Shown in pieces: positions 1,135 through 50,709 of a stretch of DNA of 50,709 nt. Source of the DNA: Escherichia phage vojen. A program made the position numbers and the translations under genes. The first letter of the stretch is position 1. Every line of letters begins with the position of its first letter. Under the pieces are notes generated by a model. The model worked only from the letters and a program-made list of their open reading frames with translations. It had not been told where the DNA came from and ran no database searches. The DNA lies in sequence record NC_049824.1; one strand, given 5' to 3'.

Positions 1135-1154
1135 GTTTTAACAAAAAGTGCTAT
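1135..1154 (-). promoter_or_regulatory. Conserved 20-bp element (minus-strand reading ATAGCACTTTTTGTTAAAAC)
   Basis: Exact match to the dispersed motif; lies upstream of minus-strand gene 799..1071; TACATT -10-like hexamer about 18 bp further on. Confidence 0.55.
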
Positions 1155-2477: not shown

Positions 2478-2497
2478 ATAGCACTTTTTGTTAAAAC
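2478..2497 (+). promoter_or_regulatory. Conserved 20-bp element ATAGCACTTTTTGTTAAAAC
   Basis: Exact motif; followed by inverted repeat CCAGG...CCTGG and CATAAT at an 18-bp gap. Confidence 0.55.
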
Positions 2498-2553
2498 GCC
2501 AGGTGCGAATCCTGGCATAATAGCCTCATCGAAACGAGATTGAGGAAAACAAA

Positions 2554-2739
2554 ATGGCACGTCGCATCACCAAAGACCTTAAAGTTCTGAACAAAGAAAA
2601 CGTAGTTAAAATCCTGGTTATCTGGGGATACAACGAAGAAGCAGCAAAGCAGAAGGTAGAAGCAGGTTATGAGCTGGCTGTAAAAGCAATGCCAAACGAC
2701 GACGCAAAAGGTATTGCAAACTATGTAGCTTTCTTTTAA
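2554..2739 (+). CDS. hypothetical protein (61 aa)
   Basis: ORF with GAGGAAAA RBS. Confidence 0.5.
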   Translation: MARRITKDLKVLNKENVVKILVIWGYNEEAAKQKVEAGYELAVKAMPNDDAKGIANYVAFF

Positions 2740-2754
2740 TTATCAGGTGAATAA

Positions 2755-2940
2755 ATGAAAACGAAATTAGTCCATAAATCAGAAATCAAGATCGGCGATA
2801 CTGTGATTCACAACGGTGAGCTTAGAACTGTTGGCAAAGAGTCAATAAGCCACGATGAATTTATGGGGATCTTGTTGTTCGGTGACTCTTATCGTCTTGG
2901 TTATAAAATGGTTGAGCTTGTGGAAGAGGTAAAATTCTAA
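2755..2940 (+). CDS. hypothetical protein (61 aa)
   Basis: ORF; its TAA stop abuts the next motif copy. Confidence 0.5.
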   Translation: MKTKLVHKSEIKIGDTVIHNGELRTVGKESISHDEFMGILLFGDSYRLGYKMVELVEEVKF

Positions 2941-2960
2941 ATAGCACTTTTTGTTAAAAC
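2941..2960 (+). promoter_or_regulatory. Conserved 20-bp element ATAGCACTTTTTGTTAAAAC
   Basis: Exact motif directly after the stop codon; AATAAT at an 18-bp gap. Confidence 0.55.
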
Positions 2961-3038
2961 TCAAAAACGATAACCAGGAATAATAAATCACATAGGGCGG
3001 CACGGCGTCGCCCGCAAAACCAATCAGGAGAAATCACC

Positions 3039-3971
3039 ATGTTAAAACTTGCTGACATTAAATTCCCGATCACCTTCGAATCTCGCGGCGTTGGTCATTT
3101 CATGTTTACCGACGAGAATACATGCACTAAGTTTAACGAATACGGAAGTCCAAACGCTTCAACAATGGAGATTGAACACTTCATTGAAGCGCACAATAAA
3201 CACTACAACTCACTTCGCGACTACGGCTATGCAATGCCAGGATACACCTGTTTTCACTACAAGCCATATAAAGGCCAGGTGTTACCAATGCGCGCACAGG
3301 ACATTGCGAGCGCTGCGACTTATGCGCGGGCAATTCACGCGCCAGAGAATGCAGAGCCACTAGTAAAAATGCACGCCTGCGACTACAAAAAATTGTGGTG
3401 CTTAAGCGTGGATAACATCAAGTATCCGATCGTATTCCGCACGGTTGGTAACTCAACGATTCGCTATACGTCACCAGACAACGGCGTTTATAGCGATGGT
3501 CAGAAATCAGAGTTGAAAGTTGATTTCTTTGTCAACGCTCATAACAAATTCAATCCACACAATGAAGAAGATAAGGTGTACTACGTGGAAGACATTACAA
3601 AACACTTGTTTGGAGAAACACCATTCGGCGGCGGAAAGACGTCAATTCAAGAAATCATTGGCGAGGAGATCCACAAGGCAGCCGTTGAAATGAAAGCGCC
3701 TGGAGGCTGGCGTATTGATAAGAGCGCCTTTGCCAATCAAGAAATCGTAACGCAGGGCGCCATTGAAGATATGCCAGTTGCCGCCACACTAAAAGGCGTT
3801 CAGCTTGATGATGGTATGTGGTTTGAAGTAACGGCAAAGCCAAAGACGATCGAGATTCATGATGATGTTGTTATTCTTCTGCTTCATTACGGTAGCGCAA
3901 AAAACCGTACCGTTGCGGGTGAGATTAGCATCAAGCGCGGAACGATGGTTAAGTGGAAGGTTAAGGTGTAA
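3039..3971 (+). CDS. hypothetical early protein (310 aa)
   Basis: Long ORF with AGGAGA RBS; no motif I can recognise. Confidence 0.65.
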   Translation: MLKLADIKFPITFESRGVGHFMFTDENTCTKFNEYGSPNASTMEIEHFIEAHNKHYNSLRDYGYAMPGYTCFHYKPYKGQVLPMRAQDIASAATYARAIHAPENAEPLVKMHACDYKKLWCLSVDNIKYPIVFRTVGNSTIRYTSPDNGVYSDGQKSELKVDFFVNAHNKFNPHNEEDKVYYVEDITKHLFGETPFGGGKTSIQEIIGEEIHKAAVEMKAPGGWRIDKSAFANQEIVTQGAIEDMPVAATLKGVQLDDGMWFEVTAKPKTIEIHDDVVILLLHYGSAKNRTVAGEISIKRGTMVKWKVKV

Positions 3972-3991
3972 ATAGCACTAATTGTTAAAAC
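3972..3991 (+). promoter_or_regulatory. Conserved element, variant ATAGCACTAATTGTTAAAAC
   Basis: Variant motif; TATAAT (4009-4014) sits inside a GGCC...GGCC dyad at a 17-bp gap. Confidence 0.5.
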
Positions 3992-4044
3992 TCAAATGTG
4001 GGGCCAAGTATAATGGCCTCACTTTCAACGAAGGAGATAAAACG

Positions 4045-4275
4045 ATGTACATTAACAAGAAGATGAAATGCATTTCCGTTAACTATGGTTGCTCTGGCAT
4101 GTTCAAGCCTGGCGAAATCTATATGGCGCAAAAGTTGAAATCATCAACCGGATCTTTTTACGTGAGAAATAGTAAGGGGCATCGCATGTTCCTGAACGGT
4201 GGTGAAGGCACTAAGGTTATGGCACACGCTATGGTAATTGCTGAATTTGAAGAGGTGAAAGATGGAAACAAATAA
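4045..4275 (+). CDS. hypothetical protein (76 aa)
   Basis: Start moved from the ORF-track TTG at 3982 (inside the motif) to ATG with AAGGAG RBS. Confidence 0.5.
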   Translation: MYINKKMKCISVNYGCSGMFKPGEIYMAQKLKSSTGSFYVRNSKGHRMFLNGGEGTKVMAHAMVIAEFEEVKDGNK

Positions 4276-4483
4276 GCGCGTTAAGCACAAGTTTATTGAT
4301 AATCATGGCGACGCGATTGATGTATACAAGTTCGGCGATCGAGTGTTTATTGATGGAACGTTTGAAGGTGGTCGCAGGCCGGATTTTAGGTCGATACTCA
4401 CCGTTGACCAGGTGCGCAAGCTGGCTGATAAGTTAAATGATCTGGCAGATGAAATCGAATACAAGCAAATCCATTTTAATTGA
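4262..4483 (+). CDS. hypothetical protein (73 aa)
   Basis: ORF overlapping the upstream gene end. Confidence 0.5.
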   Translation: METNKRVKHKFIDNHGDAIDVYKFGDRVFIDGTFEGGRRPDFRSILTVDQVRKLADKLNDLADEIEYKQIHFN

Positions 4484-5034
4484 TAGTTTTGATAATGAAA
4501 AAATACGAATTTGAACTTTGGGGAAGCAAATACCATTTTTCCACGAGCAAGCCGATTGTTGTAGTTGACCTTGACGGCACGTTATCCGATGGAACGCATC
4601 GCTTGCACCTGCTGCCGACAGAAGATTTGCACCTTACAGAAAGCTGGTCTGAGTTCAATAAGGCGGCTGTTGGAGATTCGCCGATTAAGAGCACGGTTGC
4701 AGTGGTTAACGGATTGTGGATGTCAGGATTTGCAATCGTTATCCTGACAGGGCGCAGCGATGAGGTGATGGCTGACACCTGCGACTGGTTAAATTATAAC
4801 GGCATCAAGTACGACGCGTTAATCATGCGCCGCAAGGAAGATAATCGAAAAGACACGATCATCAAAGAGGAAGTCTTGCGAGCTATCGGACTGGAAAACA
4901 TTGTGTGCGCTTTTGATGATTCGCCGAACGTGGTTAAGCACTTCCGCAGCCTGGGAATCACAACCTATCAGGTCACGGAATACGACAAGCCACATAATCA
5001 TATCAAATCGCATGGCGTGGAGGAATTGAAATGA
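4480..5034 (+). CDS. HAD-superfamily phosphatase (polynucleotide 3'-phosphatase / nucleotidase-like)
   Basis: VVVDLDGTL motif (HAD motif I, DxDGT) near the N-terminus; later Asp-rich motifs. Confidence 0.6.
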   Translation: MIVLIMKKYEFELWGSKYHFSTSKPIVVVDLDGTLSDGTHRLHLLPTEDLHLTESWSEFNKAAVGDSPIKSTVAVVNGLWMSGFAIVILTGRSDEVMADTCDWLNYNGIKYDALIMRRKEDNRKDTIIKEEVLRAIGLENIVCAFDDSPNVVKHFRSLGITTYQVTEYDKPHNHIKSHGVEELK

Positions 5035-5192
5035 CCTGGTTACTTTTAATCTTTGTCACAAGTTACAATTCCGCCGCTATTGAATCGCAAGAGTTCCACG
5101 GCGAATCAAGATGCCAGGAAGCACGAAAACAAGTTGTTCTCCACATGTCAGATAGTGGGAAAGATGTAACAGCGCTATGCGTTCGTAAATAG
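5031..5192 (+). CDS. small hypothetical protein with hydrophobic N-terminus (53 aa)
   Basis: ATGA overlap with the upstream stop; GGAGGAA RBS; TAG stop lies inside the next motif copy. Confidence 0.3.
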   Translation: MTWLLLIFVTSYNSAAIESQEFHGESRCQEARKQVVLHMSDSGKDVTALCVRK

Positions 5193-5208
5193 CACTTTTT
5201 GCAAAAAC
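5189..5208 (+). promoter_or_regulatory. Conserved element, variant ATAGCACTTTTTGCAAAAAC
   Basis: Variant motif; TATAGT at an 18-bp gap inside a GGGCTT...AAGCCC dyad. Confidence 0.5.
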
Positions 5209-5263
5209 ACATTATCGGGCTTGCGGTATAGTAAGCCCATCGACAACAAGCGAGGATTAAATC

Positions 5264-5527
5264 ATGGTTAATAAAGTTGAGTTTTTCAAAGCGGTGGACG
5301 TTATTGATGGTGCGCCTATCTTCTTTGCTATCCATTCTATTGACGGCGAGGATATTGGGTACAATGTTATCCGTCGAGATGGAATCTCAAAACTTAGCGA
5401 TCTTGTGAGTGTTATTGTGGCAAACGGAAAATGTGTATGGCACGATTCGCCACGAGAGCCGCGCCGCCGCGACATGCAAAATCCAGTTCTGCTTTACACG
5501 CTGGTAATTGAAGGAGTCAACAAATGA
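5264..5527 (+). CDS. hypothetical protein (87 aa)
   Basis: ORF with GAGGA RBS. Confidence 0.55.
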   Translation: MVNKVEFFKAVDVIDGAPIFFAIHSIDGEDIGYNVIRRDGISKLSDLVSVIVANGKCVWHDSPREPRRRDMQNPVLLYTLVIEGVNK

Positions 5528-5709
5528 TTTGGTTACTTGTATTTTTAGTGGTTTTCTTTTATATTTCAGGCTTATTCATCTTCCGCGCGCTGGTGAAAAC
5601 ATGCGATTGCACGGATAAAGATCAGCCTCTTGTTCTGATGTTCTGGTTTGTGTGGTTTTGGGTGGCGCTTTACCAGATTGTACGGGATGAAAGCGGCTTT
5701 AAGTGGTGA
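5524..5709 (+). CDS. small membrane protein (61 aa, two hydrophobic segments)
   Basis: ATGA overlap with upstream gene; hydrophobic stretches LLVFLVVFFYISGLFIF and LVLMFWFVWFWVALY. Confidence 0.5.
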   Translation: MIWLLVFLVVFFYISGLFIFRALVKTCDCTDKDQPLVLMFWFVWFWVALYQIVRDESGFKW

Positions 5710-5903
5710 TTCTTACTATAGCGCATTCATGCAGTGCGCTATGTTTAGATAACAACATGAGATCATGAAGATGCGAAACTTCGAAAAAATCGTATCCAAA
5801 AAGAAGCGATACAGCTACCACGAGCACCAAGAGATGAATCAACGCTATCGCAATAAGCGCCAGCGCAAAGGTAAACATTTCAGTAAACATGGAGAAAATC
5901 AAT

Positions 5904-6494
5904 ATGAAACGCGACATTATCATCCTTAACGGACCGCCAGGGGTTGGCAAAGGCACGCTTGCAGCATACTTAACGGGCCATCGTTACGCAGCCGTTAAAG
6001 CGTCGTTTAAACAGCCTATGTTTGATATTGCATTCTCCATGCTTGGCGTTTACCGATATGACGAATTCATTGATCTGTATAACGACCTCGAGCAGAAAGA
6101 AAAGCCTCAAGCAATCTTGCAAGGCAAGTCGCCTCGCCAGTTCATGATCTGGATTAGCGAAGAAGTTATGAAGCCAGCTTTTGGCGAGCAATATTTCGGA
6201 AATCGCATGGTTGAGCAAGTACACGAGATGTACAGAGATTTAGCTGTTGTAATTAGTGACGGCAGATTCCCTGAAGAAATCAAGCCGCTAGTTAAGGCAG
6301 GCCATGAAGTGCACATTTGCCGACTGCATCGCGAAGGCTTCACGTTTGATGGTGATTCACGAAACTATATTGACCTGAGCGGATACCATCACCGCGTAAA
6401 ACATTACGACTTCACAATGATTGATGGCGATCCAGAAAAGACTGTTGACGAGATCATCAAAACGGTCCAGTGGAAACACATTAAGATCAAATAG
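5904..6494 (+). CDS. P-loop nucleotide/polynucleotide kinase
   Basis: GPPGVGKGT Walker A close to the start; start moved to ATG with GGAG RBS; TAG stop lies inside the next motif copy. Confidence 0.55.
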   Translation: MKRDIIILNGPPGVGKGTLAAYLTGHRYAAVKASFKQPMFDIAFSMLGVYRYDEFIDLYNDLEQKEKPQAILQGKSPRQFMIWISEEVMKPAFGEQYFGNRMVEQVHEMYRDLAVVISDGRFPEEIKPLVKAGHEVHICRLHREGFTFDGDSRNYIDLSGYHHRVKHYDFTMIDGDPEKTVDEIIKTVQWKHIKIK

Positions 6495-6510
6495 CACGAA
6501 TTGCTAAAAG
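6491..6510 (+). promoter_or_regulatory. Conserved element, variant ATAGCACGAATTGCTAAAAG
   Basis: Variant motif overlapping the kinase stop; TATAAT (6529-6534) at an 18-bp gap after an imperfect dyad. Confidence 0.45.
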
Positions 6511-6564
6511 CGGGGCGCAATGCCTCGCTATAATGCAAACACCAATCAAAGAGAGGACTTGAAC

Positions 6565-6969
6565 ATGTTAGAGCTTAACGACATTCGCGTAGGCACAAAA
6601 TTTCGCGTAACCTGGGTATATGATGAGCGATGCGGCATTCGTAAAGGTGAGATTGTAACTGCTTCCGATCGCTATATCGGATCGTTAAAAGAGTTTAACC
6701 GACCACGCATCAAGAATGGCTATATCATTACTCGGCGACTTGGCTTTGATCATTATTGCGTAGTGGCAACTCAAGGCGTTTTGATTGAGCTTAAGCGAAT
6801 CAGCGATCATCGCGGATGCCATGTTAAGACAATGAAAACACCATTTCAGCGAGCGCGATACGATGCGCGACGTATGCGCCGACTTGCGCGTAATGCGATC
6901 AAGTTCAAAAAGCCTGATAATGTTCTTTACGGCATGTACAAGGGGATTGCGCGAAATGCTGGGAAATAA
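6565..6969 (+). CDS. hypothetical protein (134 aa)
   Basis: Start moved to ATG with AGAGAGGA RBS, downstream of the -10-like hexamer. Confidence 0.5.
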   Translation: MLELNDIRVGTKFRVTWVYDERCGIRKGEIVTASDRYIGSLKEFNRPRIKNGYIITRRLGFDHYCVVATQGVLIELKRISDHRGCHVKTMKTPFQRARYDARRMRRLARNAIKFKKPDNVLYGMYKGIARNAGK

Positions 6970-7068
6970 CAACAACGCAACAAATCCAAAGCCGCCATTT
7001 GATTTTCATGAAATCATGATTGTGTTATTCTTGATTCTCTTAGTTATTTATTCAGTGAGGGCCGCACT

Positions 7069-7332
7069 ATGGTTTTTAACGCATTAAAACGAATCTTTAA
7101 ACCTGAATACCGGATCGTTGCTTGCACAGAATGCAAGATTTATTACCTGCAACGCCGCCGCGTTATTAGTGGCGATTGGGAATATCTGACGGATGATGCT
7201 TTCGGCTTTTGGGCTATGGAGTTCAATAGCTACAGTGAAGCGCGTGAGTACGCTAAAAAGTTGCACAAGTTCCGACCTTACAAGCTGCGTTTGCTGGTTG
7301 TTAAAAAATGCGATGTGTGGGATCACGTATGA
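7069..7332 (+). CDS. hypothetical protein (87 aa)
   Basis: ORF with GAGGG RBS. Confidence 0.5.
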   Translation: MVFNALKRIFKPEYRIVACTECKIYYLQRRRVISGDWEYLTDDAFGFWAMEFNSYSEAREYAKKLHKFRPYKLRLLVVKKCDVWDHV

Positions 7333-7508
7333 AAAGAGTAATTATCATTTTTATTGCCCTTATCGCTGGTTGCTACCTGGCTTATAATTATAGCGGCATT
7401 GTTGAGTCAATCGGCGGGTTGATTATCTTCATGGCTGGCGGGTATGCTGGCTATTGTGATGGATTCGAAAACGGAAAGCGTTACATGCTGACCGGAAAAA
7501 AGAAGTAA
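7329..7508 (+). CDS. small membrane protein / possible lipoprotein (59 aa)
   Basis: ATGA overlap with upstream stop; N-terminal hydrophobic segment with lipobox-like LIAGC. Confidence 0.4.
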   Translation: MKRVIIIFIALIAGCYLAYNYSGIVESIGGLIIFMAGGYAGYCDGFENGKRYMLTGKKK

Positions 7509-7551
7509 TGTTAACCGCGCCGCTTAGGTGGCGCTAAAAGGAGGAAACAAA

Positions 7552-7839
7552 ATGGCTAAAAGCAATCGTAAAATGTTGATTAACGCATTCGAAAAGGCAG
7601 CGCTTGAGCGTGGTTGGAATGACTCATTTCACACGGCAAACTGTATCCGACGTTACGGATTCAAGAATTGCCGATCCTGGGCGCGTCAAATGGCTTCATG
7701 GTATGATCTTGATGCGCATTACCTTGATATGGATTGCGCTCTGGTTGAAATGATTGAGCAGGCAGCATTAGAGGATCGACCATTAACGCAATCTGATTTT
7801 GACGATTTTGTGCGCGATGAAATCTATTACATGAGCTAA
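7552..7839 (+). CDS. hypothetical protein (95 aa)
   Basis: Start moved to ATG with AAGGAGG RBS; TAA stop abuts the next motif copy. Confidence 0.55.
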   Translation: MAKSNRKMLINAFEKAALERGWNDSFHTANCIRRYGFKNCRSWARQMASWYDLDAHYLDMDCALVEMIEQAALEDRPLTQSDFDDFVRDEIYYMS

Positions 7840-7858
7840 TAGCACTTTTTGTTAAAAC
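7839..7858 (+). promoter_or_regulatory. Conserved 20-bp element ATAGCACTTTTTGTTAAAAC
   Basis: Exact motif sharing a base with the upstream TAA; TAAAGT-like hexamer at an 18-bp gap. Confidence 0.5.
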
Positions 7859-7914
7859 TTCCGCGAGGGCATTTGTTAAAGTGTCCTCATTGAAGCGAAA
7901 CAGAGGAAATCAAA

Positions 7915-8127
7915 ATGAAAATTCGAATCACCAGGGTTGACATTGACCGCAACGACGGAAGCATTACCCTTGAGCAATGCGGGTTCAAAGTTGGTGACAT
8001 TGTAGAGGTTGACGGATTCTTTCGCGATGGCTCTTACTGCGTGTTAGCAATCCGCAACACAGAAGAAATTCGAATCGGTGATAACATCGGCGTAAATCAT
8101 GACGAATGCGAGGTAGTAGAAGAATGA
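7915..8127 (+). CDS. hypothetical protein (70 aa)
   Basis: ORF with AGAGGAAA RBS. Confidence 0.55.
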   Translation: MKIRITRVDIDRNDGSITLEQCGFKVGDIVEVDGFFRDGSYCVLAIRNTEEIRIGDNIGVNHDECEVVEE

Positions 8128-10525: not shown

Positions 10526-12093
10526 TGCTGATTTGGGAAGACTTAACAGCGGCGCAAAAACGCGCCGTTAAGGAAATGAGCGAATATTCATTCGAAAAGA
10601 TGATCCGCATTTGGTTTCAACTTCTCCAGGGGCAAAGGTTCTTAGGAAACTGGCATTTCAGTTACCTATGCAGCGAAGTTGAAAAAATCATCAAAGGCGA
10701 GTCACAGAATGTAATTTTCAACATAACGCCAGGTAGTGGTAAAACAGAGATATTCTCGATCCATATGTCACCTTATGCGTCATTGAAAAGTAAGAAGGTG
10801 AGAAATCTTAATTTGTCGTTTAGTGATGGCCTTGTCCAGCAGAACAGCAACCGCATCAAAGAGATTATTGGTTCTCCAGAATGGCAGGAGTTATGGCCTG
10901 GAAAGCTGGCAAAGGCGAGCGCAAAGGATTTGATTGTAACCGATGGCGGCAAGGTTAAATTGCAAGTTAACTCGCGTTCTATCGGTGGTCAGGTTACTGG
11001 TCTGCGTGGCGGCTACATGGACGATGGATTTACTGGTATGCTGGTTCTTGACGATCCAGACAAGCCGGATGACATGCTTTCTAAGGTGAAGCGCGAAGCC
11101 GGACACATGCGCCTAAAGAACACGGTGCGATCGCGTCGAATGAAAGACACTACGCCAATTGTGATGGTTCAGCAACGTCTACACGTCAATGATTCAACAT
11201 GGTTCATGACAAACGGCGGCATGGGCGGCATCCAGTTTAAGGTGGTCAGTATTCCGGCGCTCGTTACTAAGGAATATCGCGAAACGCTTCCTGATTGGTT
11301 AAAGCCTGAGTTTGATCGCGATGTTTTGTCCAGTAAGCCAGTGATGATTGATGGCGTTGCTCATTATTCATTCTGGCCTGCTAAGGAAAGCGCGGAGGAA
11401 TTACTTGCACTTCGCAATGCTGATCCTTACACGTTCGCTAGTCAGTATCAGCAACAGCCTGTTGCGCTTGGCGGTAACGTGTTTAAAACAGAGTGGTTTC
11501 AGTATTACGGCAGCAGCGAGAAATGCACGCTACCAAAACCGGATCGCTTTGAATATACATTTATCACGGTTGATACCGCACAGAAAACAGGGGAGCTTAA
11601 CGACTACTCCGTGATCTGTTATTGGGGGATGTATAAAGATCGCGTTTACTTCATTGATGGTGTTCGCGGAAAATGGGAAGCACCAGACCTTGAGACTAAT
11701 TTTGTTGCGTTCGTTAATCAGTGCTGGAAGCGCAATAAAGAATGCGGAACGTTGCGAAGGATTCATGTTGAAGATAAGTCATCTGGCACTGGCTTGATTC
11801 AGAGCGCAGCGAAAAAAATCATGATCAAGATTAATCCCGTTCAGCGAGATAAAGATAAGGTTACGCGAGCAATGGACGCAGCGCCAGTAATGCGCGCCGG
11901 ACGCGTAGCACTTCCAGAATCGCATCCTATGCTGGCTGAGATACTAGCTGAAGTTGCGGCGTTCACATTCGATGATTCGCATCCTAATGATGATATTGTT
12001 GATAACATCATTGATGCGGTTAACATTGAAATGAACATGGCAGATGATCCGGTTGGAAGAATGAAAAAATTGGCAGGTTTGCGGAACAAATAG
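10525..12093 (+). CDS. terL: terminase large subunit
   Basis: Walker A-like PGSGKTE, Walker B-like LVLDDPD, C-terminal nuclease-like region, 522 aa, followed by portal. Confidence 0.85.
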   Translation: MLIWEDLTAAQKRAVKEMSEYSFEKMIRIWFQLLQGQRFLGNWHFSYLCSEVEKIIKGESQNVIFNITPGSGKTEIFSIHMSPYASLKSKKVRNLNLSFSDGLVQQNSNRIKEIIGSPEWQELWPGKLAKASAKDLIVTDGGKVKLQVNSRSIGGQVTGLRGGYMDDGFTGMLVLDDPDKPDDMLSKVKREAGHMRLKNTVRSRRMKDTTPIVMVQQRLHVNDSTWFMTNGGMGGIQFKVVSIPALVTKEYRETLPDWLKPEFDRDVLSSKPVMIDGVAHYSFWPAKESAEELLALRNADPYTFASQYQQQPVALGGNVFKTEWFQYYGSSEKCTLPKPDRFEYTFITVDTAQKTGELNDYSVICYWGMYKDRVYFIDGVRGKWEAPDLETNFVAFVNQCWKRNKECGTLRRIHVEDKSSGTGLIQSAAKKIMIKINPVQRDKDKVTRAMDAAPVMRAGRVALPESHPMLAEILAEVAAFTFDDSHPNDDIVDNIIDAVNIEMNMADDPVGRMKKLAGLRNK

Positions 12094-12109
12094 CACGAAT
12101 CGACAAACC
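12090..12109 (+). promoter_or_regulatory. Degenerate copy of the conserved element (ATAGCACGAATCGACAAACC)
   Basis: Overlaps the terL TAG stop; TATAAT follows after only 4 bp, so geometry differs from canonical copies. Confidence 0.3.
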
Positions 12110-12122
12110 AATATATAATCAA

Positions 12123-12148
12123 AGGCTGGTTAATCCAGCCTTTTTTAT
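12123..12148 (+). terminator. Rho-independent terminator
   Basis: AGGCTGG-TTAAT-CCAGCCT hairpin followed by TTTTTTATT. Confidence 0.8.
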
Positions 12149-14209: not shown

Positions 14210-15322
14210 ATGAAGGCAAAACAAAGATTTGATAGCGTCCAGGTTAAGGCGCATTTTGATGATAATGGATTTTTAGTGGATCGCCCAATTGTGGCGCGAA
14301 TTGGTTTGCAGGAGTACCGCACACCGTATGGAATCAGACGAGAGTTCCGACCAGCGTCAGAGGTATTTAAGGCTGATTCGCTTGCTACGTTCGCAGGCAA
14401 GCCGATCACTATCGGTCACGTCACGGTAACGCCAGACAATGCGGATCAGGTTGTTGTTGGTTCATGCGCTGGCGCTGGTGTTCCAAATGGTATTGGCGTT
14501 GAAGTTCCGTTAAGCATTTACTCAAAGCGAGCAATTGAGAGCGCAAAAAAGAAAGACACGGCGGAAATTTCAGTTGGTTACACATCGGTTGATATTGACA
14601 AGCCAGGCTGGGGTAATAATAAAACCGGAGATTACTTGTTTGAGGAAGACCTAAATGAAGACTGGAAGCCTGATTCTCCTGATTGGGTTAAATTTGACGC
14701 CATTCAGACGAATATCCGCGTTAATCACATTGCACTTGTCTTTCGTGGTCGTGCTGGCATTGCCAAATTAAATCTTGATAGTGAACAGGATTTTCCGTAT
14801 AGTGACGAGGTTCTAAATGACAAAGGAGATGAGGAAATGACAGTAAAAATTAAACTTGATGGCGCGGTAGAATTTGATGTTCCAAAGGCCGTTGCAGATC
14901 ACATCGAGGCGCTAAAGGCTGATGCAAAAGCTGCAACCGAAAAAGCTGATGGCCTTGAGGCCGAGCGCGACGCCCTGAAAACTAAAGTTGATGGCATTCC
15001 TGCGCAGATTGCAGAAGCTGTTAAGAAGGCAAAGACTGACGCAGAAGAACATGCCAAGCTGGTTGCAGATGCAACTGAAATTGGCATCAAGTGTGACGGC
15101 TTGGACGCTAAAGCGATCAAGGTTGCTTACGTCAAAGAAGTCACTGGCGCTGATATTTCAGAAAAAGCCGATGCATATATTGAAACAGCTTTTGACCTTG
15201 CGAAGCAGTCTGATAAAATGGCGGCGCAGCGTAAATCTGTTAAGGGCTATTCTTTCGGGTCTGGCAAGAGTGAAAAAACCGACTCCCTTGATCCGACTGC
15301 GCGTTTGAAAAAACTTAAATAA
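14210..15322 (+). CDS. putative prohead protease / scaffolding protein
   Basis: 370 aa; Ala/Lys/Glu-rich coiled-coil-like C-terminal half; sits between head-morphogenesis and capsid genes. Confidence 0.5.
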   Translation: MKAKQRFDSVQVKAHFDDNGFLVDRPIVARIGLQEYRTPYGIRREFRPASEVFKADSLATFAGKPITIGHVTVTPDNADQVVVGSCAGAGVPNGIGVEVPLSIYSKRAIESAKKKDTAEISVGYTSVDIDKPGWGNNKTGDYLFEEDLNEDWKPDSPDWVKFDAIQTNIRVNHIALVFRGRAGIAKLNLDSEQDFPYSDEVLNDKGDEEMTVKIKLDGAVEFDVPKAVADHIEALKADAKAATEKADGLEAERDALKTKVDGIPAQIAEAVKKAKTDAEEHAKLVADATEIGIKCDGLDAKAIKVAYVKEVTGADISEKADAYIETAFDLAKQSDKMAAQRKSVKGYSFGSGKSEKTDSLDPTARLKKLK

Positions 15323-16345: not shown

Positions 16346-16365
16346 CGTTTAACAAAAAATGCTAT
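16346..16365 (-). promoter_or_regulatory. Conserved element, inverted relative to the downstream plus-strand gene
   Basis: Plus strand reads TTTAACAAAAAATGCTAT; orientation is opposite to the canonical arrangement. Confidence 0.4.
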
Positions 16366-18547: not shown

Positions 18548-18983
18548 AAACTACACGATAAGGGAATTTCACGGCAACATTGATGCGTGGATAAATGCCG
18601 TTGATAGTGGACTAAAAGATTGCGTGGAGTTGTTCGCCGAAAAAGTACACACAGATTTGGTTAAGCGTTCTCCGGTAGATACTGGTCGTTACCGTGCAAA
18701 CTGGCAGGTAACAGCAAACAAGCCGCCATTGTATGCGCTTAATCAGTACGATAAGCACGGAGACAAAACTATCGCGGAAGGTAAGCGAGCCATATACGCA
18801 ATGTTACGAGGTGGCGGCGCAGTAAGGGCCATTTATTTTTCAAATATGCTTATTTACGCTAACGCGCTTGAGTACGGTCATTCAAAACAAGCGCCAGCGG
18901 GTGTACTTGGGATTGTCGCGGTTAAGTTGAGATCTTATATGGCTGAAGCAATAAAAGAGTCGAGGGCTAAAAATGCACTATGA
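18540..18983 (+). CDS. putative neck protein (HK97 gp10-like)
   Basis: Contains TGRYRANWQ-like segment; overlapping start. Confidence 0.4.
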   Translation: MAKNYTIREFHGNIDAWINAVDSGLKDCVELFAEKVHTDLVKRSPVDTGRYRANWQVTANKPPLYALNQYDKHGDKTIAEGKRAIYAMLRGGGAVRAIYFSNMLIYANALEYGHSKQAPAGVLGIVAVKLRSYMAEAIKESRAKNAL

Positions 18984-20067: not shown

Positions 20068-20106
20068 GTTACTGTACAATCAAGCTACACGATTCATAAT
20101 CAATTC

Positions 20107-20125
20107 TTTTAACAAAAAGTGCTAT
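20107..20125 (-). promoter_or_regulatory. Conserved element, inverted relative to the downstream plus-strand gene
   Basis: Plus strand reads TTTTAACAAAAAGTGCTAT immediately before the RBS of the tail chaperone gene. Confidence 0.45.
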
Positions 20126-30465: not shown

Positions 30466-30492
30466 GGGCTTTCGCCCCTTTATTTTTATTTA
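30466..30492. terminator. Bidirectional intrinsic terminator
   Basis: GGGGC-TTTC-GCCCC hairpin flanked by A-run upstream and T-run downstream, between convergent genes. Confidence 0.8.
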
Positions 30493-30717
30493 CAGACTGC
30501 AATCAGCGTTTTTAAAGTTGTCAATGTTTACCCACTGAAAATTAAACGGATAGCCAGCCTTAACAAGAGTGCGGTCGCCAACTCGTTTTACTCCGAAAAT
30601 AGCAACTGAATACTGCATTCCGCTATTTTCATAAATAGCCGTGCATTCACGTTTAGGCATATTTGCGCACCCAGTCAGGGTTACGGTGGCAATCAAAGCG
30701 GCGATAAATTTTTTCAT
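30490..30717 (-). CDS. small outer-membrane lipoprotein, candidate superinfection-exclusion protein (Cor/Llp-like)
   Basis: Signal peptide with lipobox LTGC; mature ~58 aa with two Cys; GGAGA RBS; sits beside the host-range genes on the opposite strand. Confidence 0.5.
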   Translation of the reverse strand: MKKFIAALIATVTLTGCANMPKRECTAIYENSGMQYSVAIFGVKRVGDRTLVKAGYPFNFQWVNIDNFKNADCSL

Positions 30718-30771
30718 CTTGGTGTCTCCTTAGTTGTTGTTGGTTGCAACTATACACGATCTTGCGGTGTG

Positions 30772-30791
30772 CGTTTAGCAAAAAGTGCTAT
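30772..30791 (-). promoter_or_regulatory. Conserved element, variant (minus-strand reading ATAGCACTTTTTGCTAAACG)
   Basis: Variant motif upstream of the lipoprotein gene with TATAGT at a ~17-bp gap. Confidence 0.5.
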
Positions 30792-32280: not shown

Positions 32281-32361
32281 ACAGCACAAATAGCTAAACA
32301 AATGAAAAATGCGGTGTTATAATTCACCGCATAAGTTAACAACAAGAGTAAGGAAATAAAC

Positions 32362-32640
32362 ATGGAAAACAAACAAGTGTCAGAGGTAGTAGTTCATATT
32401 AATAATTTTGCAACTGGCATGGCTATGTTGCTTCGTGACTTTGTTGCGCCGCTTGATCCAACAGCAGGCGCAGAAGAAATGGAGTACATCAGAAAAGTAA
32501 TTGATGCAGTCGATAACGTCGTGCTCATTGCAACAATGAGAGAAGAAAACGAGGAAGCAATTAAGGCGGTAAAAGAAAGTTCTGATCGCATGATGGAAAA
32601 TCTGATTAAATTACACACCAAAGAAGAAACAAAACATTAA
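32362..32640 (+). CDS. hypothetical protein (92 aa)
   Basis: ORF with AAGGAAA RBS between exonuclease and Erf genes. Confidence 0.5.
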   Translation: MENKQVSEVVVHINNFATGMAMLLRDFVAPLDPTAGAEEMEYIRKVIDAVDNVVLIATMREENEEAIKAVKESSDRMMENLIKLHTKEETKH

Positions 32641-38901: not shown

Positions 38902-38956
38902 ATACACCTCAAACAAAAAAGCCTGACAGATGATAACATCATGCCAGGCATTGTTT

Positions 38957-39430
38957 TTAGCAATTAGTGCTTTCAGGTTTATACAGGAATCCGCCAGGTT
39001 CATAATCTGACATTCTTACCACTCGCAACATTTCACGCTTATCACATCTCTTTGTGAGCGGTTTTCCATTGGAATCAAATCGCAGATCTGGACGGCAGAA
39101 TGAAGCGCGATAGCCTTGACAGCCATACTTTTTGTAATCGTTATGCACCTTTTGAGCGCCAGCGGCTGAAATCATACCGCGAACGCGCCACTGATTTACA
39201 GTTTGCTGGCTAACGTTAAGACGCTTTGCCATTGCTGACACGCTGCCGTAATACTCAATAAGAATGTCAAGCCGTGCTTTTAGTCCGGCGCGCACTTCAT
39301 CTTTTAAAACATAGTATCCTGTAGGGCGCTTGCGCTTTTTCTTATCTTTACCCCGTCGAGTTCCGTTATTGCCATTGATTGTGCGTTTGTCAATCTTACC
39401 AGTTGATACTGCGATTCGCTGTTCTTTCAT
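38957..39430 (-). CDS. putative DNA-binding regulator (basic N-terminus, HTH-like segment)
   Basis: KDKKKRKRP basic stretch; LNVSQQTVNQWR HTH-like segment; GGAGA RBS; start abuts a conserved element in the divergent region. Confidence 0.5.
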   Translation of the reverse strand: MKEQRIAVSTGKIDKRTINGNNGTRRGKDKKKRKRPTGYYVLKDEVRAGLKARLDILIEYYGSVSAMAKRLNVSQQTVNQWRVRGMISAAGAQKVHNDYKKYGCQGYRASFCRPDLRFDSNGKPLTKRCDKREMLRVVRMSDYEPGGFLYKPESTNC

Positions 39431-39444
39431 TATTCATTCTCCAA

Positions 39445-39464
39445 TAGCATTTTTTGTTAAACGA
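39445..39464 (+). promoter_or_regulatory. Conserved element, variant ATAGCATTTTTTGTTAAACG
   Basis: In the divergent region between the HTH gene and helicase; TATTAT at a ~16-bp gap. Confidence 0.5.
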
Positions 39465-39519
39465 TGATTTAATGATTGTGTATTATACACGCCAAATGGC
39501 ATTACTCAAAGGTTTTAGA

Positions 39520-41565
39520 ATGATTCCAAACATTGAAAAGCAAATATCAGCACTTGGTGAAGCGGTAATTAAATCCATTCAGGAGCGATTCACTGTTGGC
39601 GAGATTGTGCCTTACCCTTACCAGTGCGTTGCATACGCTGAGATCGCAAAGCGTATGAAAAATTATGAGCATCCATTCTTTGTTAAAGCGTCCGTATCGG
39701 CTGGCAAAACATTGATGTTTGCAATGGTTGCTCACCAGTGCCGGAAAATGGGCTTGAAAATGATGGTACTTGCTCGCCAGGCTGAGATTGTGGATCAGGA
39801 TTCTGAAGAGATAACAAATCTTGGTGTGCCGAACTCCATCTATTGTGCAGGACTGAAGACAAAAAGCGCATACTTTCCGATCGTTGTTGGTTCTGAGGGA
39901 ACTGTAGTTAATGGACTGTTTAAAGCGCTTGGCGACTATGTTCCGCACGTTATCGGGATCGACGAGTGTCACCAGGTGGATTGGGAAGACCTTGCCGACG
40001 CAATAGAGAAAGACGAGTCATTTTTACAAATGACAACTAAGAAAGGCGAAAAAGTACCAAATCCAGATTATGACATAACAAAGGGAAGCAGGAACAGAAA
40101 TACAGAGTTCCTGATTGGTGAGGATGGCTTGCCAATGGAGGGAACAGGCCGCACACAATACACTGTCATTATCATGGAAATGATGCGCCGCTGCCGGAAA
40201 ACATATGGTCATGAACTGCGCATATTTGGCATGACTGGATCGGAGTTTCGCGGCGTAGTCCCGATCCTGGTGGAAGACAAAAAACAGAAAGGATTCTGGC
40301 GTGAACAGGTTACTAATATTGACACCAACTACCTGATCAAATTCGGTTCTGTTGTGCCAACAAATTTTGGCGACGTTGGCGATCTAGGGTATGACCTTTC
40401 AGAGTTTGAGGCATCCAGTGAGGATGGCGTTGCAGACTTTGACGCTAAAACGCTTCGCAGGATGGAACAAAAAATTCATGAAGAAGCGACCATGACAAAG
40501 CGCATCATGGCGAAAGTTCACGAGATCTGTAAAAACCGCAACGGCGTACTTGTGACATGTGCAGGAGAAAGGCATTGCAAAGAGGCAGCGGCAGCGTTGC
40601 CACCTGGAACGACTTACAGGATAATTACTGGTAAGACTGGCGACAATCAGCGCAAGGAGTGGTTAAGGGAAGCATACGAAGGGAAAGTAAAATACATCTT
40701 CCAGGTTCAGGCGCTAACAACTGGCGTTAACGTGCCGTTTTGGGATACGTCGGTTATATTGCGTAAGATTGGATCTCTTACGTTGCTGATTCAGCTTTTA
40801 GGACGCGGAATGCGACTTCTTAAGAAATGGCATAAGGAGCAAGGCTTCAAGAAAGATGATCACCTGGTTATGGATTTTTCAGGAACGATGGACGAGTTAG
40901 GTGAGCTTTATTTTGATCCGATACTTGAACAGGCGCAGCATCAGAAGCGATTCAGGAACGGTAAAGATCCGAAGCCTTGTCCTGTTTGTGGAACTCTTAA
41001 CAGCTATTATGCTCGTCGTTGTATGCACGTAGACGAAAACGGCAACAGATGCGAGTGGTTCTTTAAATTCAGGACATGTGATGATCAGATTGACCCACGC
41101 ACTAAAAAGATTATTCAGCGCGGCTGTGGAACTAAAAATGATATTGCGGCCAGGGTATGCAGACATTGCGACATGTCATTGATTGACCCTAACGAGAAGT
41201 TAAGCGGAAAGCACTACACAAAAAACGACTGGTTTCAGGTGCAATCTTTCTCGGTTGACATGACGAAAAACCAGAAAGGGATAATATTTAATTATGAGCT
41301 TTCCGATGGCATAGACACTTTCAGAGCGCGTGAAATATTTTTCCCTGAATCAGAAAGCCAAATTTGTCGCGCAAAATGGAGAAATGTTGCTCTTAAGCAC
41401 ATACCGGATCGCCGTATTGCTGGCATGGTGGCGAGCTATCGTAATGCACGTAAAATCATGCAATATGTGAATCACATCATGCCGCCATCGCGTGTTACTC
41501 ACAGAAAGACTAGCAAGAGTGAAGATAATTTGTACAAGAAGGACTTTAATTATGGCAATGACTGA
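39520..41565 (+). CDS. SF2 DNA helicase with C-terminal zinc-ribbon motifs
   Basis: Walker A SAGKT; DExH-like GIDECHQ; C-terminal CPVCG...RRC and CGTKN...CRHC; start moved from in-motif TTG to ATG. Confidence 0.65.
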   Translation: MIPNIEKQISALGEAVIKSIQERFTVGEIVPYPYQCVAYAEIAKRMKNYEHPFFVKASVSAGKTLMFAMVAHQCRKMGLKMMVLARQAEIVDQDSEEITNLGVPNSIYCAGLKTKSAYFPIVVGSEGTVVNGLFKALGDYVPHVIGIDECHQVDWEDLADAIEKDESFLQMTTKKGEKVPNPDYDITKGSRNRNTEFLIGEDGLPMEGTGRTQYTVIIMEMMRRCRKTYGHELRIFGMTGSEFRGVVPILVEDKKQKGFWREQVTNIDTNYLIKFGSVVPTNFGDVGDLGYDLSEFEASSEDGVADFDAKTLRRMEQKIHEEATMTKRIMAKVHEICKNRNGVLVTCAGERHCKEAAAALPPGTTYRIITGKTGDNQRKEWLREAYEGKVKYIFQVQALTTGVNVPFWDTSVILRKIGSLTLLIQLLGRGMRLLKKWHKEQGFKKDDHLVMDFSGTMDELGELYFDPILEQAQHQKRFRNGKDPKPCPVCGTLNSYYARRCMHVDENGNRCEWFFKFRTCDDQIDPRTKKIIQRGCGTKNDIAARVCRHCDMSLIDPNEKLSGKHYTKNDWFQVQSFSVDMTKNQKGIIFNYELSDGIDTFRAREIFFPESESQICRAKWRNVALKHIPDRRIAGMVASYRNARKIMQYVNHIMPPSRVTHRKTSKSEDNLYKKDFNYGND

Positions 41566-41983
41566 TAAAGGCGATTATCTGGAGTTTTACGAAAGAGATC
41601 CGACGGATACGCTAAAAGAGGAATCTCACCAGATCGGGGCGTTTCAATGGTTAACTTATGCTCATCCTGAATTTCTTGCCTGGCATACTAAAAATGAGGG
41701 CGACAAGGGGATCGCCACCGCAATGATGGATCAGCAAGCAGGACTCGTTAAGGGCGTAAGTGATTTTATCATCCTGATTGGATTGAAAGGCCGCTACCCT
41801 TTCGCGGCTATTGAGATGAAACGCGTCAATAAGTCTGGCAAGGGTAAGTCTTCACCAGTCAGCAAGGATCAAAAAGCCTTCTTGCGTCGTGTGCGTGAGC
41901 TTGGCGGATTCGCTGCCGTAACATACGGATATAAGCAATTCATGATCGCGGTAGAATACATGATAAATAGCACTTTTTGTTAA
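41552..41983 (+). CDS. VRR-NUC-like nuclease
   Basis: C-terminal segment with SDFIIL...AIEMKR consistent with a PD-(D/E)xK/VRR-NUC core; last five codons encoded by the next motif copy. Confidence 0.5.
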   Translation: MAMTDKGDYLEFYERDPTDTLKEESHQIGAFQWLTYAHPEFLAWHTKNEGDKGIATAMMDQQAGLVKGVSDFIILIGLKGRYPFAAIEMKRVNKSGKGKSSPVSKDQKAFLRRVRELGGFAAVTYGYKQFMIAVEYMINSTFC

Positions 41984-41986
41984 AAC
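41967..41986 (+). promoter_or_regulatory. Conserved 20-bp element ATAGCACTTTTTGTTAAAAC
   Basis: Exact motif followed by GGCGC...GCGCC dyad and CATAAT at an 18-bp gap. Confidence 0.55.
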
Positions 41987-42044
41987 AGGCGCGAAGGATT
42001 GCGCCATAATAACACCAGTTCAACAAGCAACAGGTAATTAAGAA

Positions 42045-42750: not shown

Positions 42751-42990
42751 ATGCAGAAAGAAAGAAGCGTTTATTTAAATGAAACTGGCGAATGGTTGTT
42801 ATTTCGCGCTATGGTTTGCGAGGCGCTTGATAAAAACGATTTCATAAAACCGCTATTAGGTTGCGATCCGTGGGAGTTTACAAGCGCTCTTGACATGAGC
42901 TTTGAGGAAACAAGAAAACTACCACTTGAAAAATGGCATGAGCAGATCGGTAAAGACTTGCAAGAGTTTTACGAATCCGCGTCAAAATAG
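42751..42990 (+). CDS. hypothetical protein (79 aa)
   Basis: Start moved to ATG with GGAG RBS; TAG stop lies inside the next motif copy. Confidence 0.45.
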   Translation: MQKERSVYLNETGEWLLFRAMVCEALDKNDFIKPLLGCDPWEFTSALDMSFEETRKLPLEKWHEQIGKDLQEFYESASK

Positions 42991-43006
42991 CACTTTTTGT
43001 TAAAAC
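42987..43006 (+). promoter_or_regulatory. Conserved 20-bp element ATAGCACTTTTTGTTAAAAC
   Basis: Exact motif followed by GCCCGG...CGGGC dyad and CATAAT at an 18-bp gap. Confidence 0.55.
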
Positions 43007-43063
43007 GCCCGGCCTTGTGTCGGGCATAATTATTTCAACGAAACAAACATGAGGAAATAAAAA

Positions 43064-43243
43064 TGGTAGTATACAGCAAGAAAGCATTTGACCAGGCGCA
43101 ACAAACAGCACGCGAGGCGGTAAAAGGTGGAACGAAAAACAATATGCAGCTTGATTGGGGAGCGGCAATGATTCTGCTTCGCGTTGCATATGGTCACTAC
43201 CCATTAGGATTTGCGGAGGCATATTATAAGCATGAAGGTTGAA
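43064..43243 (+). CDS. small hypothetical protein (59 aa)
   Basis: ORF below the track cutoff with GAGGAAA RBS downstream of a motif copy. Confidence 0.35.
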
Positions 43244-48050: not shown

Positions 48051-48101
48051 TGATGATAACTCCTTTTTGATGCGGCAATAATACCGCACCAATGCTACCC
48101 G

Positions 48102-48121
48102 CATTTAACAAAAAATGCTAT
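48102..48121 (-). promoter_or_regulatory. Conserved element, variant (minus-strand reading ATAGCATTTTTTGTTAAATG)
   Basis: Variant motif followed by TGCGG...CCGCA dyad around TATTAT at an 18-bp gap; overlaps the TAG stop of gene 48118..48339. Confidence 0.5.
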
Positions 48122-48339
48122 TTGATCCGCTCTATGCTAACTAAGATTTTTTCTGGTTCCTTTGCACTATGGCAATGCGCGGTTACAGAATCAACAAAAT
48201 CAAAGTAAAGTGATTTGTGATATGAAAATCCAATCAGCCACCCAACCATCGTTTTCTTTATTGGCCTGACTATATCGCCAGGCCTGAAGGTTTTTGTTGC
48301 TGATTGAGTCACCTTATAGCGATATTCAGTCTTGATCAC
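48118..48339 (-). CDS. hypothetical protein (73 aa)
   Basis: ORF with ATGA overlap to the upstream gene. Confidence 0.45.
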   Translation of the reverse strand: MIKTEYRYKVTQSATKTFRPGDIVRPIKKTMVGWLIGFSYHKSLYFDFVDSVTAHCHSAKEPEKILVSIERIK

Positions 48340-48777: not shown

Positions 48778-48797
48778 CTTTTAACAAAAAGTGCTAT
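48778..48797 (-). promoter_or_regulatory. Conserved 20-bp element (minus-strand reading ATAGCACTTTTTGTTAAAAG)
   Basis: Exact motif followed by GCCAGG...CCTGGC dyad and CATAAT at an 18-bp gap, then RBS and ATG of 48336..48722. Confidence 0.55.
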
Positions 48798-50690: not shown

Positions 50691-50709
50691 GTTTTAACAA
50701 AAAGTGCTA
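50691..50709 (-). promoter_or_regulatory. Conserved element, truncated at window end
   Basis: Plus strand reads GTTTTAACAAAAAGTGCTA, preceded by GATGCGC...GCGCATC dyad enclosing an ATAAT-like hexamer. Confidence 0.5.

Follow-up and report, generated by a model that had tools for sequence, protein, structure and literature searches.

The stretch of DNA analyzed here, the 50,709-nucleotide sequence of Escherichia phage vojen (NC_049824.1; hereafter, the window), is the ~50.7-kb genome of a T1-like virulent siphovirus (Hanrivervirus, Drexlerviridae), an assignment based on the 91-94% identity of its early region to the Shigella/Escherichia phages ESh4, pSf-1, egaa and herni and on the classification of the related phage G29-2 (Drexlerviridae, Tempevirinae, Hanrivervirus). 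The genome has small early genes on both arms, a late block that extends over a long part of the plus strand, and a block for replication/recombination; a tRNA scan of the window found none, and intergenic canonical sigma70 promoters are scarce (1691 (+), 31162 (+), 39509 (-) and possibly 9171 (+)). The subject of this analysis is a repeated intergenic 20-bp element, its relation to the -10-like hexamers that follow it, and the kind of protein by which it may be recognized.

A sequence-only reading of this DNA had proposed a family of near-identical ~20-bp elements, and this family is real: the 20-mer ATAGCACTTTTTGTTAAAAC is matched 14 times in the window at 3 or fewer mismatches (0.00 expected), a looser consensus adds the copies at 6491 (which carries 5 mismatches), 12090, 32281 and 38973, and the total amounts to 19 copies, including one at 50691-50709 that the end of the window truncates. 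On the minus strand, the 5' ends of the copies fall at 1154, 16365, 20125, 30791, 38973, 48121 and 48797. The element is present at every position listed in that reading (with 39445 corrected to 39444), and the claim of at least eight copies in the plus-strand early block proved too generous, with six good copies and one degenerate copy between 2478 and 12090. The T1 genome contains 21 copies, and the pooled statistics given below refer to 32 canonical copies from the window and T1, which represent different subfamilies (the T1 copy sequences used for computation were taken from an alignment).

The repeat itself is already published and is not new. The genome paper on phage TLS (2024) describes a 21-nt direct repeat, aaATAGCACnnnTTGnTAAAA, in 18 intergenic copies that are oriented with transcription and lie ~76 nt upstream of start codons, with similar repeats in T1, Rtp and Rogue1; it offers stoperators, enhancer sites and UP elements as proposals and lists the function of the repeat among the questions of the field (PMC11447400). 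That repeat and the one in the window are the same element by sequence, agreeing also in orientation to transcription and in lying ~75 nt upstream of start codons, and the three to four canonical sigma70 promoters of the window correspond to P01, P51 and P57 of the TLS paper.

The first line of evidence concerns promoter architecture. With a -10-like hexamer defined by A2, T6 and at least 4/6 matches to TATAAT, such a hexamer lies 17-18 nt past the 20-mer in 15/18 complete copies (background 0.043, binomial p = 2e-18); the same architecture is seen in 16/19 copies when the end-cut copy is included, and in T1 the hexamer stands 17-19 nt past the box in 17 of the 21 copies (15 at 17-18 nt, two at 19 nt). 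Among the 32 canonical copies, A-11 and T-7 are invariant, G occupies position -14 in 27/32, the position 7 nt after the hexamer (the predicted +1) is A in 24/32, and position -1 is C in 20/32. A Shine-Dalgarno sequence and an ATG codon follow ~25-30 nt past the predicted start, and all canonical modules (16/16) point along the direction of the downstream genes. No TTGACA-like -35 is present at 16-18 bp from these hexamers, a consensus scan yielding only TTAAAA-18-TATAAT at 3985. Both the hexamer at 17-18 bp past the motif and the lack of a canonical -35, as described in the sequence-only reading, are thus confirmed, and its suggestion of an activator-dependent early promoter family gains support from the fixed -10 spacing, the C-A start and the gene orientation. 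We consider it very likely that the repeated cassettes are promoters. In each cassette, the preceding gene's stop codon would be followed by the 20-bp element, which 17-18 nt separate from a TATAAT-like -10; after six further nucleotides come an A at +1, a short conserved leader, a Shine-Dalgarno sequence and ATG.

The second line of evidence concerns the identity of the 20-mer, which, as judged from its base sequence, is a consensus marbox, i.e., the asymmetric type of site bound by the monomeric AraC/XylS activators that carry two motifs of the helix-turn-helix (HTH) type, MarA, SoxS, Rob and RamA. The marbox consensus from the Grainger laboratory is 5'-GCAHWWWWTGYYAAA-3' (PMC6900184) or gcannwwntgnnaaa (PMC12052159). 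The former matches the window perfectly at 15 sites (0.07 expected), each of which is a copy of the repeat, and T1 at 22 sites with one or no mismatch (1.2 expected); the older 20-bp consensus, AYnGCACnnWnnRYYAAAYn, has 17 matches in the window at one or no mismatch (1.4 expected). We estimate at ~5e-4 the chance that an element would agree with an independent host consensus at 15/15 positions and also stand in the correct register, allowing for ~200 factors, two strands and several registers. Positions that vary from copy to copy coincide with the degenerate positions of the marbox: over the 32 copies, G4, C5, A6, T11, G13, A16 and A17 are invariant, and variation is found at positions 14 (T/C, 17:15), 7 (C/T), 2 (T/C) and 9 and 10 (T/A only). 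This conservation is asymmetric, with dyad partners missing for A1, C7, T11, A17 and A18 and the partner of G4 complementary in only 15/32 copies, and a monomer therefore fits better than a Cro-type dimer. The host boxes of E. coli K-12 are ATGCCACGTTTTGCTAAATC (mar), ACAGCACTGAATGTCAAAAC (micF) and ATGGCACGAAAGACCAAACA (fumC); the phage element has 16/20 bases in common with mar and 15/20 with micF, and the phage boxes are nearer to the idealized consensus than the host's own.

The third line of evidence is geometric. In promoters of class II, the marbox is forward-oriented, overlaps the -35 region and is centered at -41/-41.5 (PMC12052159, PMC6900184, PMC8811837, PMC9638938). The phage box spans about -50 to -31, with its center near -41, and 16/16 canonical copies read GCAC...AAA toward the -10, the Shine-Dalgarno sequence and ATG, which is the forward orientation. 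In E. coli, the micF box is followed by exactly 18 nt and TAGAAT, and the fumC box by 17-18 nt and an A/T hexamer, so that the phage cassettes share both orientation and register with micF, the reference promoter of class II. In the cryo-electron microscopy structure of the Rob-RNA polymerase-micF complex, Rob contacts -47G, -45A, -38G, -37T and -35/-34, and it excludes region 4 of sigma70 from the -35 (PMC9178005). With the hexamer set at -12 to -7, these contacts map to G4, A6, G13, Y14, A16 and A17 of the phage element, all invariant in the phage copies except Y14, which is always a permitted pyrimidine. In the class II arrangement, the activator occupies the -35 region, contacts both the alpha C-terminal domain and region 4 of sigma70, and thereby brings the polymerase of the host to a promoter with a -10 alone. 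Overall, the phage cassettes have in common with the host class II promoters (micF, fumC, lpxC P2, lpxL P1 and rfaY P1) a 20-bp asymmetric forward box with GCAC and YAAA seven bp apart, the overlap with -35 and the distance of 17-18 nt to a sigma70 -10 (PMC12052159, PMC9178005, PMC9638938). They differ in that the host boxes are degenerate, whereas the phage boxes are at consensus and occur in ~16 copies within one 50-kb lytic genome, upstream of most early genes, and in that micF and fumC lack the RNA stem-loop that the phage cassettes have within the spacer or around the -10.

A gene for a matching activator was sought in the phage itself. No AraC-type HTH domain was found in 40 window proteins (early and unknown-function open reading frames, ORFs) scanned against Pfam, tblastn searches of the window with MarA and SoxS as queries yielded no significant match, and tblastn of MarA against 50,697 phage records gave 137 matches that included no Klebsiella phage and, among the 40 matches listed, no T1- or T4-like phage. 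The product of ORF 1752-2222 (DUF7174), the first gene after a sigma70 promoter, was considered as a hidden MarA-like activator and rejected: its BLASTP similarity is weak (pairwise E 5e-4, 22% gaps), and phage records with a member of the family number only 151, far below the number of repeat carriers, with none seen in T4-like phages. The T1-like and T4-like phages considered here all infect Enterobacteriaceae, which are known to carry regulators of the MarA/SoxS/Rob type (PMC7216687, PMC12052159). Since no such gene was found in the phage and since the cassette also occurs in unrelated T4-like phages of the same hosts (see below), the candidate activator is most probably host-encoded. Rob, being constitutively abundant (PMC9178005), appears to be the best host candidate, and MarA/SoxS (RamA in Klebsiella) could add stress-dependent boosts. 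On balance, we are inclined to think that the cassettes work via a marbox-type activator supplied by the host.

Several points weigh against this interpretation. The case is built on sequence and geometry, from which we infer both the binding of a marbox protein and the dependence of transcription on it, and the phage has a core Cro-like HTH regulator that could bind the partial dyad TAGCA-N5-TGYTA of the element. Basal levels of MarA and SoxS are low. Rob, in turn, reportedly exists mostly in a sequestered form when cells are unstressed (PMC9178005), and for these two reasons the reliance of a fast lytic phage on Rob/MarA/SoxS is not obviously safe. A good -10 combined with G at -14 could by itself give substantial activator-independent transcription. 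Finally, classical T1-resistance genetics, to our knowledge, yielded receptor/uptake genes rather than rob, marA or soxS, an outcome in which redundancy among these three genes could mask an effect.

The rival explanation that survives best, although we regard it as unlikely, is that the 20-mer is bound by a phage DNA-binding protein, either a delayed-early activator positioned at -41 or a repressor that would switch early promoters off like the stoperators suggested in the TLS paper, in which case the likeness to a marbox would be coincidental or secondary. The best candidate for such a protein is the Cro-like regulator encoded at 38957-39430 (-), the sole recognizable phage DNA-binding protein, whose HTH resembles those of Cro proteins. 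It is the product of a core family gene (849 phage records by tblastn, with ~44-53 kb genomes among the matches listed), and it has a sigma70 promoter of its own (TTGAGT-16-TATAAT, minus strand from 39509), whose leader crosses the box at 39444-39463, a classic autoregulation layout; in TLS too, according to its genome paper, canonical sigma70 promoters number only three, and one precedes the Cro-like regulator gene. The partial dyad, moreover, is centered at -41/-42. On the other hand, conservation does not follow this dyad, which half of the copies break at G4/Y14, and the single orientation and register to the -10 of all 16 canonical modules, as well as the low chance of the host-consensus match estimated above, weigh against this rival. 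The cassette is also kept in T4-like phages, whereas no record larger than ~53 kb is found in a sample of 30 of the 849 tblastn matches of the regulator. Stoperators of the kind known from mycobacteriophage L5 are asymmetric sites, aligned with transcription and dispersed inside transcription units, to which a phage repressor binds. An orientation bias is common to both systems, and the Cro-like regulator might be such a binder, but the fixed -10 distance of 16/19 phage copies is not a stoperator requirement. A symmetric operator TAGCA-N5-TGYTA was rejected, with only about half of the dyad positions complementary and asymmetric invariant flanks.

The region 39430-39560, where the promoters of the regulator and helicase genes diverge and overlap, has a palindromic -10 region, GTGTATTATACAC, common to both promoters. 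This layout suggests cross-regulation or autoregulation.

Less probable still, and in our opinion doubtful, is an explanation in terms of strong factor-independent sigma70 promoters, with TTAAAA serving as a weak -35 at 18-19 bp, a dominant contribution of the -10 and G-14, UP-like tracts for the alpha C-terminal domain, and conservation of the box resulting from the copying of cassettes. The single hit of the consensus scan at 3985 and the conservation of G-14, A-11 and T-7 agree with it, as do the likeness of TTTTT-GTT-AAAA to the UP pattern TTTT-NNN-AAA and the clear mobility of cassettes between genomes. UP elements, however, are A/T-rich at -59 to -38 and lie upstream of a recognizable -35. 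The phage element at -50 to -31 has its T- and A-tracts 7-8 bp nearer to the -10, is followed by no TTGACA-like hexamer, and contains an invariant GCAC, which is not an UP feature, so that the UP-element option of the sequence-only reading fits poorly. In addition, GCAC at -47 to -44 is kept in T1 and in the window, i.e., across subfamilies, while the neighboring positions 8-10 drift, which argues for selection on specific contacts rather than recent copying, and the spacers and discriminators differ completely between copies around an unchanged box, which argues that the cassettes are old.

Other known classes of sites were compared and rejected. A sigma54 promoter (TGGCAC-N5-TTGC, to be compared with TAGCAC-N3-TTGCT) would have GG in place of AG, the spacing is two bases short in every copy, and the hexamer that follows is of the sigma70 type. 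The middle promoters of T4, which depend on MotA/AsiA, share with the phage cassettes a sigma70 -10 and an activator box that replaces the -35 and contains TGCT. The MotA box (TGCTT), however, is centered at -30, 11-13 bp from the -10, whereas TGYTA ends 22 nt before the hexamer, and no MotA/AsiA match to Pfam was obtained in the 40 ORFs scanned. None of the sites for IHF, Fis, CRP/FNR, DnaA or ArcA fits (by-eye comparison with their consensus sequences).

In addition to the marbox and the -10, the cassettes contain a stem-loop. Between the end of the box and +1, the sequence folds with a mean minimum free energy of -9.1 kcal/mol vs. -3.8 kcal/mol for shuffles that keep the hexamer (z = -15.5, 32 cassettes), and the signal persists (z = -11) when discriminators are swapped between promoters. 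Two geometries are observed: (i) a GC-rich stem of 6-8 bp around the -10, with the discriminator as its 3' arm (e.g., GGGCTTgcggTATAGTAAGCCC at 5189), and (ii) a stem-loop wholly within the spacer that ends at the hexamer (e.g., CCAGGtgcgaatCCTGG at 2478 and CCCGCgaaaGCGGG in T1); examples of the stretches involved are 5197-5238, 3980-4020, 7845-7888, 2498-2515 and 43007-43024. The sequences of the stem arms vary between copies, which argues that compensatory changes preserve the pairing. Folding is more stable for the sense than for the antisense strand (-9.1 vs. -6.4, Wilcoxon p = 1.5e-5), and 30/232 pairs in the stems are G.U pairs; these two features argue for an RNA hairpin and led us to reject a DNA cruciform. 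The stem-loop occupies promoter positions that are free of sequence requirements and would act on read-through transcripts of the upstream gene. It is followed by the -10 hexamer or by ATCGAAAC and not by a U-tract, and our best guess, held with low confidence, is on this account a 3'-end stabilizer or a weak terminator; an ARNold-based annotation of G29-2 labels one such hairpin a terminator.

An RNA-level role, which the sequence-only reading had left open, is therefore upheld insofar as an RNA signal does exist in the spacer or discriminator, and it does not extend to the 20-mer itself. That the 20-mer would be an RNA-level signal of its own (for processing, stability or protein binding in the 3' untranslated region of the upstream gene), or a recombination linker for the shuffling of cassettes, is highly improbable: the element is transcribed on read-through of the upstream gene, adjoins a sense-strand RNA stem-loop under selection and belongs to a cassette found before unrelated ORFs in two genomes (the window and G29-2), as in the promoter-stem-loop cassettes of T4-like phages (PMC2839356, PMC4122927), but the distance of 17-18 nt to the -10 and the C-A start are features of promoters and not of RNA, an Rfam scan of the window matched no family, and a linker role leaves the invariant positions unexplained, being compatible with a promoter function rather than an alternative to it.

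The copies found in the window are collected in Table 1; for those at 30772, 32281, 38954 and 39444, the predicted start positions are 30742, 32330, 38923 and 39493, respectively.

Table 1. Copies of the 20-mer in the window with their -10 hexamers, start sites predicted from sequence, stem-loops and genomic context; an ORF or gene given after an arrow is the one downstream, taken as driven by the cassette.
Element	Position (strand)	-10 hexamer	Predicted +1	Stem-loop	Downstream gene and context
20-mer, ATAGCACTTTTTGTTAAAAC	2478..2497 (+)	CATAAT 2516-2521	A2528	CCAGG-N7-CCTGG in spacer	-> ORF 2554-2739 (DUF7421)
20-mer	2941..2960 (+)	AATAAT 2979-2984	~2991		-> ORF 3039-3971
20-mer, ATAGCACTAATTGTTAAAAC	3972..3991 (+)	TATAAT 4009-4014 (17-nt gap)	A4021	GGGGCC/GGCCTC around -10	-> ORF from 4045
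20-mer, ATAGCACTTTTTGCAAAAAC, 14/15 to consensus	5189..5208 (+)	TATAGT 5227-5232	A5239	GGGCTT/AAGCCC around -10	-> ORF 5264-5527
20-mer, ATAGCACGAATTGCTAAAAG, 'GAA' subtype of TLS	6491..6510 (+)	TATAAT 6529-6534	A6541		-> ORF from ATG 6565
20-mer	7839..7858 (+)	TAAAGT 7877-7882	A7889	GAGGGC/GTCCTC around -10	-> ORF 7915-8127
20-mer	1135..1154 (-)	TACATT 1111-1116	A1104		-> minus-strand ORF 799-1071
20-mer, ATAGCACTTTTTGCTAAACG	30772..30791 (-)	TATAGT 30749-30754			-> small minus-strand ORF 30490-30717, within late block, at position of T1 cor gene
Weaker 20-mer, ACAGCACAAATAGCTAAACA, 14/15	32281..32300 (+)	TATAAT 32318-32323		GCGGTG/CACCGC around -10	-> ORF 32362-32640
20-mer, AAAGCACTAATTGCTAAAAA	38954..38973 (-)	TATCAT 38930-38935			Inside 3' end of Cro-like regulator gene; points into primase gene
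20-mer, ATAGCATTTTTTGTTAAACG	39444..39463 (+)	TATTAT 39481-39486			-> helicase gene; within leader of divergent sigma70 promoter of Cro-like regulator gene
20-mer	41967..41986 (+)	CATAAT 42005-42010	A42017	GGCGC-N8-GCGCC in spacer	-> ORF 42045-42746
20-mer	42987..43006 (+)	CATAAT 43025-43030	A43037	In spacer	-> ORF 43063-43242
20-mer, ATAGCATTTTTTGTTAAATG	48102..48121 (-)	TATTAT 48078-48083	A48071		-> large ATPase gene
20-mer	48778..48797 (-)	CATAAT 48754-48759	A48747	CCAGG-N8-CCTGG in spacer	-> ORF 48336-48722
20-mer, first base outside window	50691..50709 (-)	TATATT 50667-50672	A50660	GATGCGC/GCGCATC around -10	-> ORF 50438-50635
Orphan box, 15/15	16346..16365 (-)	None usable			Antisense to late genes; 46 nt upstream of 324-aa ORF, at position of T1 major capsid gene
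Orphan box, 15/15	20106..20125 (-)	TAGCTT (poor)			Adjoins ribosome-binding site of ORF 20139; points at bidirectional terminator ~40 nt off
Degenerate copy, 12/15	12090..12109 (+)				Between terminase and portal genes; no promoter architecture

The two orphan boxes keep their position across subfamilies, with counterparts at 15069-15086 (-) and 18833-18850 (-) of T1 and DR7 of TLS. The one at 20106-20125 lies just upstream of an ORF at the position of the T1 tape-measure-chaperone gene and, since it points at the nearby terminator, may give a very short antisense RNA or serve as a protein roadblock. The degenerate copy at 12090 is followed by TATATAAT at a wrong spacing and by a strong bidirectional terminator (12121-12143), and the region 12090-12143 may represent a decayed cassette. 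At the window end, the first gene behind the terminal marbox promoter (ORF 50438-50635, minus strand) matches the Pfam family PF25180, 'Phage antiviral trigger protein Gp54', with E = 3e-38.

Beyond the window, a BLAST search with 32 nt around one copy gave matches in 1,113 phage records, mostly of Klebsiella, Escherichia, Shigella, Salmonella, Enterobacter, Citrobacter and Cronobacter phages. The same repeat is carried by about 20 closely related records of 47-50 kb that are labeled 'Campylobacter phage' with C. jejuni as host, a host label that looks doubtful. The cassette also occurs in T4-like phages. The Klebsiella phage Miro (Slopekvirus) has ATAGCACTTTTTGTTAAAAC followed by 18 nt, TATAGT, tacccc and ATCGAAAC (L003 47-64, 402-419); KP27 (Slopekvirus) has ATAGCACTTTTTGCTAAAGA followed by 19 nt and TATAGT (L006 ~1812, 2427), its copies being annotated as 'putative middle promoter'; and the E. 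coli phage Lw1 (Pseudotevenvirus) has the same cassette (L011 ~377). The Miro cassette is followed by a gene specific to T4-like phages, which indicates that the promoter moved, or was retained, independently of T1 genes. In one KP27/Miro copy, the box stands 29 nt from the -10, one helical turn further, with a TTGCAT -35 of its own and, in between, a hairpin that resembles a terminator. Many cassettes share, at +1 to +12, a conserved initial transcribed sequence, ATCGAAACGA(G/A) (2528-2539, 1093-1104 and 48736-48747 in the window); it also follows KP27 (L006 ~2744-2757) and Lw1 (L011 ~705-716) promoters that have an ordinary -35 and no marbox, and it thus represents a separable part of the cassette.

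The cassettes also mark mosaic boundaries. The one at 7839-7914 is identical between the window and G29-2 (L001 6715-6790), whereas the ORFs that follow are unrelated (MKIRITRV... vs. MSTLKDKN...), with divergence beginning in the leader near the Shine-Dalgarno sequence. This arrangement is reminiscent of the promoter-stem-loop cassettes (PeSLs) described by Arbiol, Comeau and Krisch, in which a repeated early promoter is combined with a stem-loop and takes part in modular shuffling in T4-like phages (PMC2839356, PMC4122927). Both are short repeated intergenic promoter/stem-loop cassettes that lie beside small variable ORFs of unknown function and mark points of exchange. PeSLs, however, have a near-consensus sigma70 -35/-10 pair, whereas the cassettes of the window have a marbox instead of the -35; and the PeSL stem-loop is located just upstream of the promoter and acts as a terminator, whereas that of the window is placed between box and +1, its loop often containing the -10, and is not followed by a U-tract.

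Section 17 and Supplementary Table S1 of the TLS paper report neither the fixed -10 nor the identity with the marbox nor the embedded stem-loop (PMC11447400). In the searchable literature, we found no earlier report of the class II marbox identity, the host-activator argument or the embedded RNA stem-loop, no link of marbox regulators to phage promoters, and no transcription-start, transcript or reporter data for T1-like phages.

Taken at its widest, the interpretation is that virulent T1-like phages and some T4-like phages sharing their hosts wire nearly their whole early program to MarA/SoxS/Rob/RamA, the host regulators of antibiotic and oxidative stress, via consensus class II marboxes that outcompete the degenerate sites of the host, a proposal that we put forward tentatively as quite possible, though short of probable. 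Some consequences are practical. Reading the repeat as a marbox turns the question listed by the TLS authors into a few standard experiments, and it bears on annotation, with hundreds of deposited genomes carrying these sites unlabeled or called terminators or 'middle promoters'. As a naturally occurring collection of class II marbox promoters at consensus, the cassettes would also lend themselves to synthetic use, and the embedded stem-loop extends the idea of mobile PeSLs from T4-like to T1-like phages. In phage therapy (Drexlerviridae, Klebsiella weberviruses), the expression of phage genes could shift with the mar/ram/sox status of the host, and alterations of this status are frequent among resistant clinical isolates. 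If the proposal is true, this virulent phage family would be using a host stress/antibiotic-resistance regulator as the activator of its early genes, and phage development would be coupled to the drug-resistance state of the host: early genes of the phage would be expressed more strongly in cells that are stressed or have Mar-type resistance, and replicating phage DNA, with ~16 consensus sites per genome, could titrate the regulators off efflux and porin genes.

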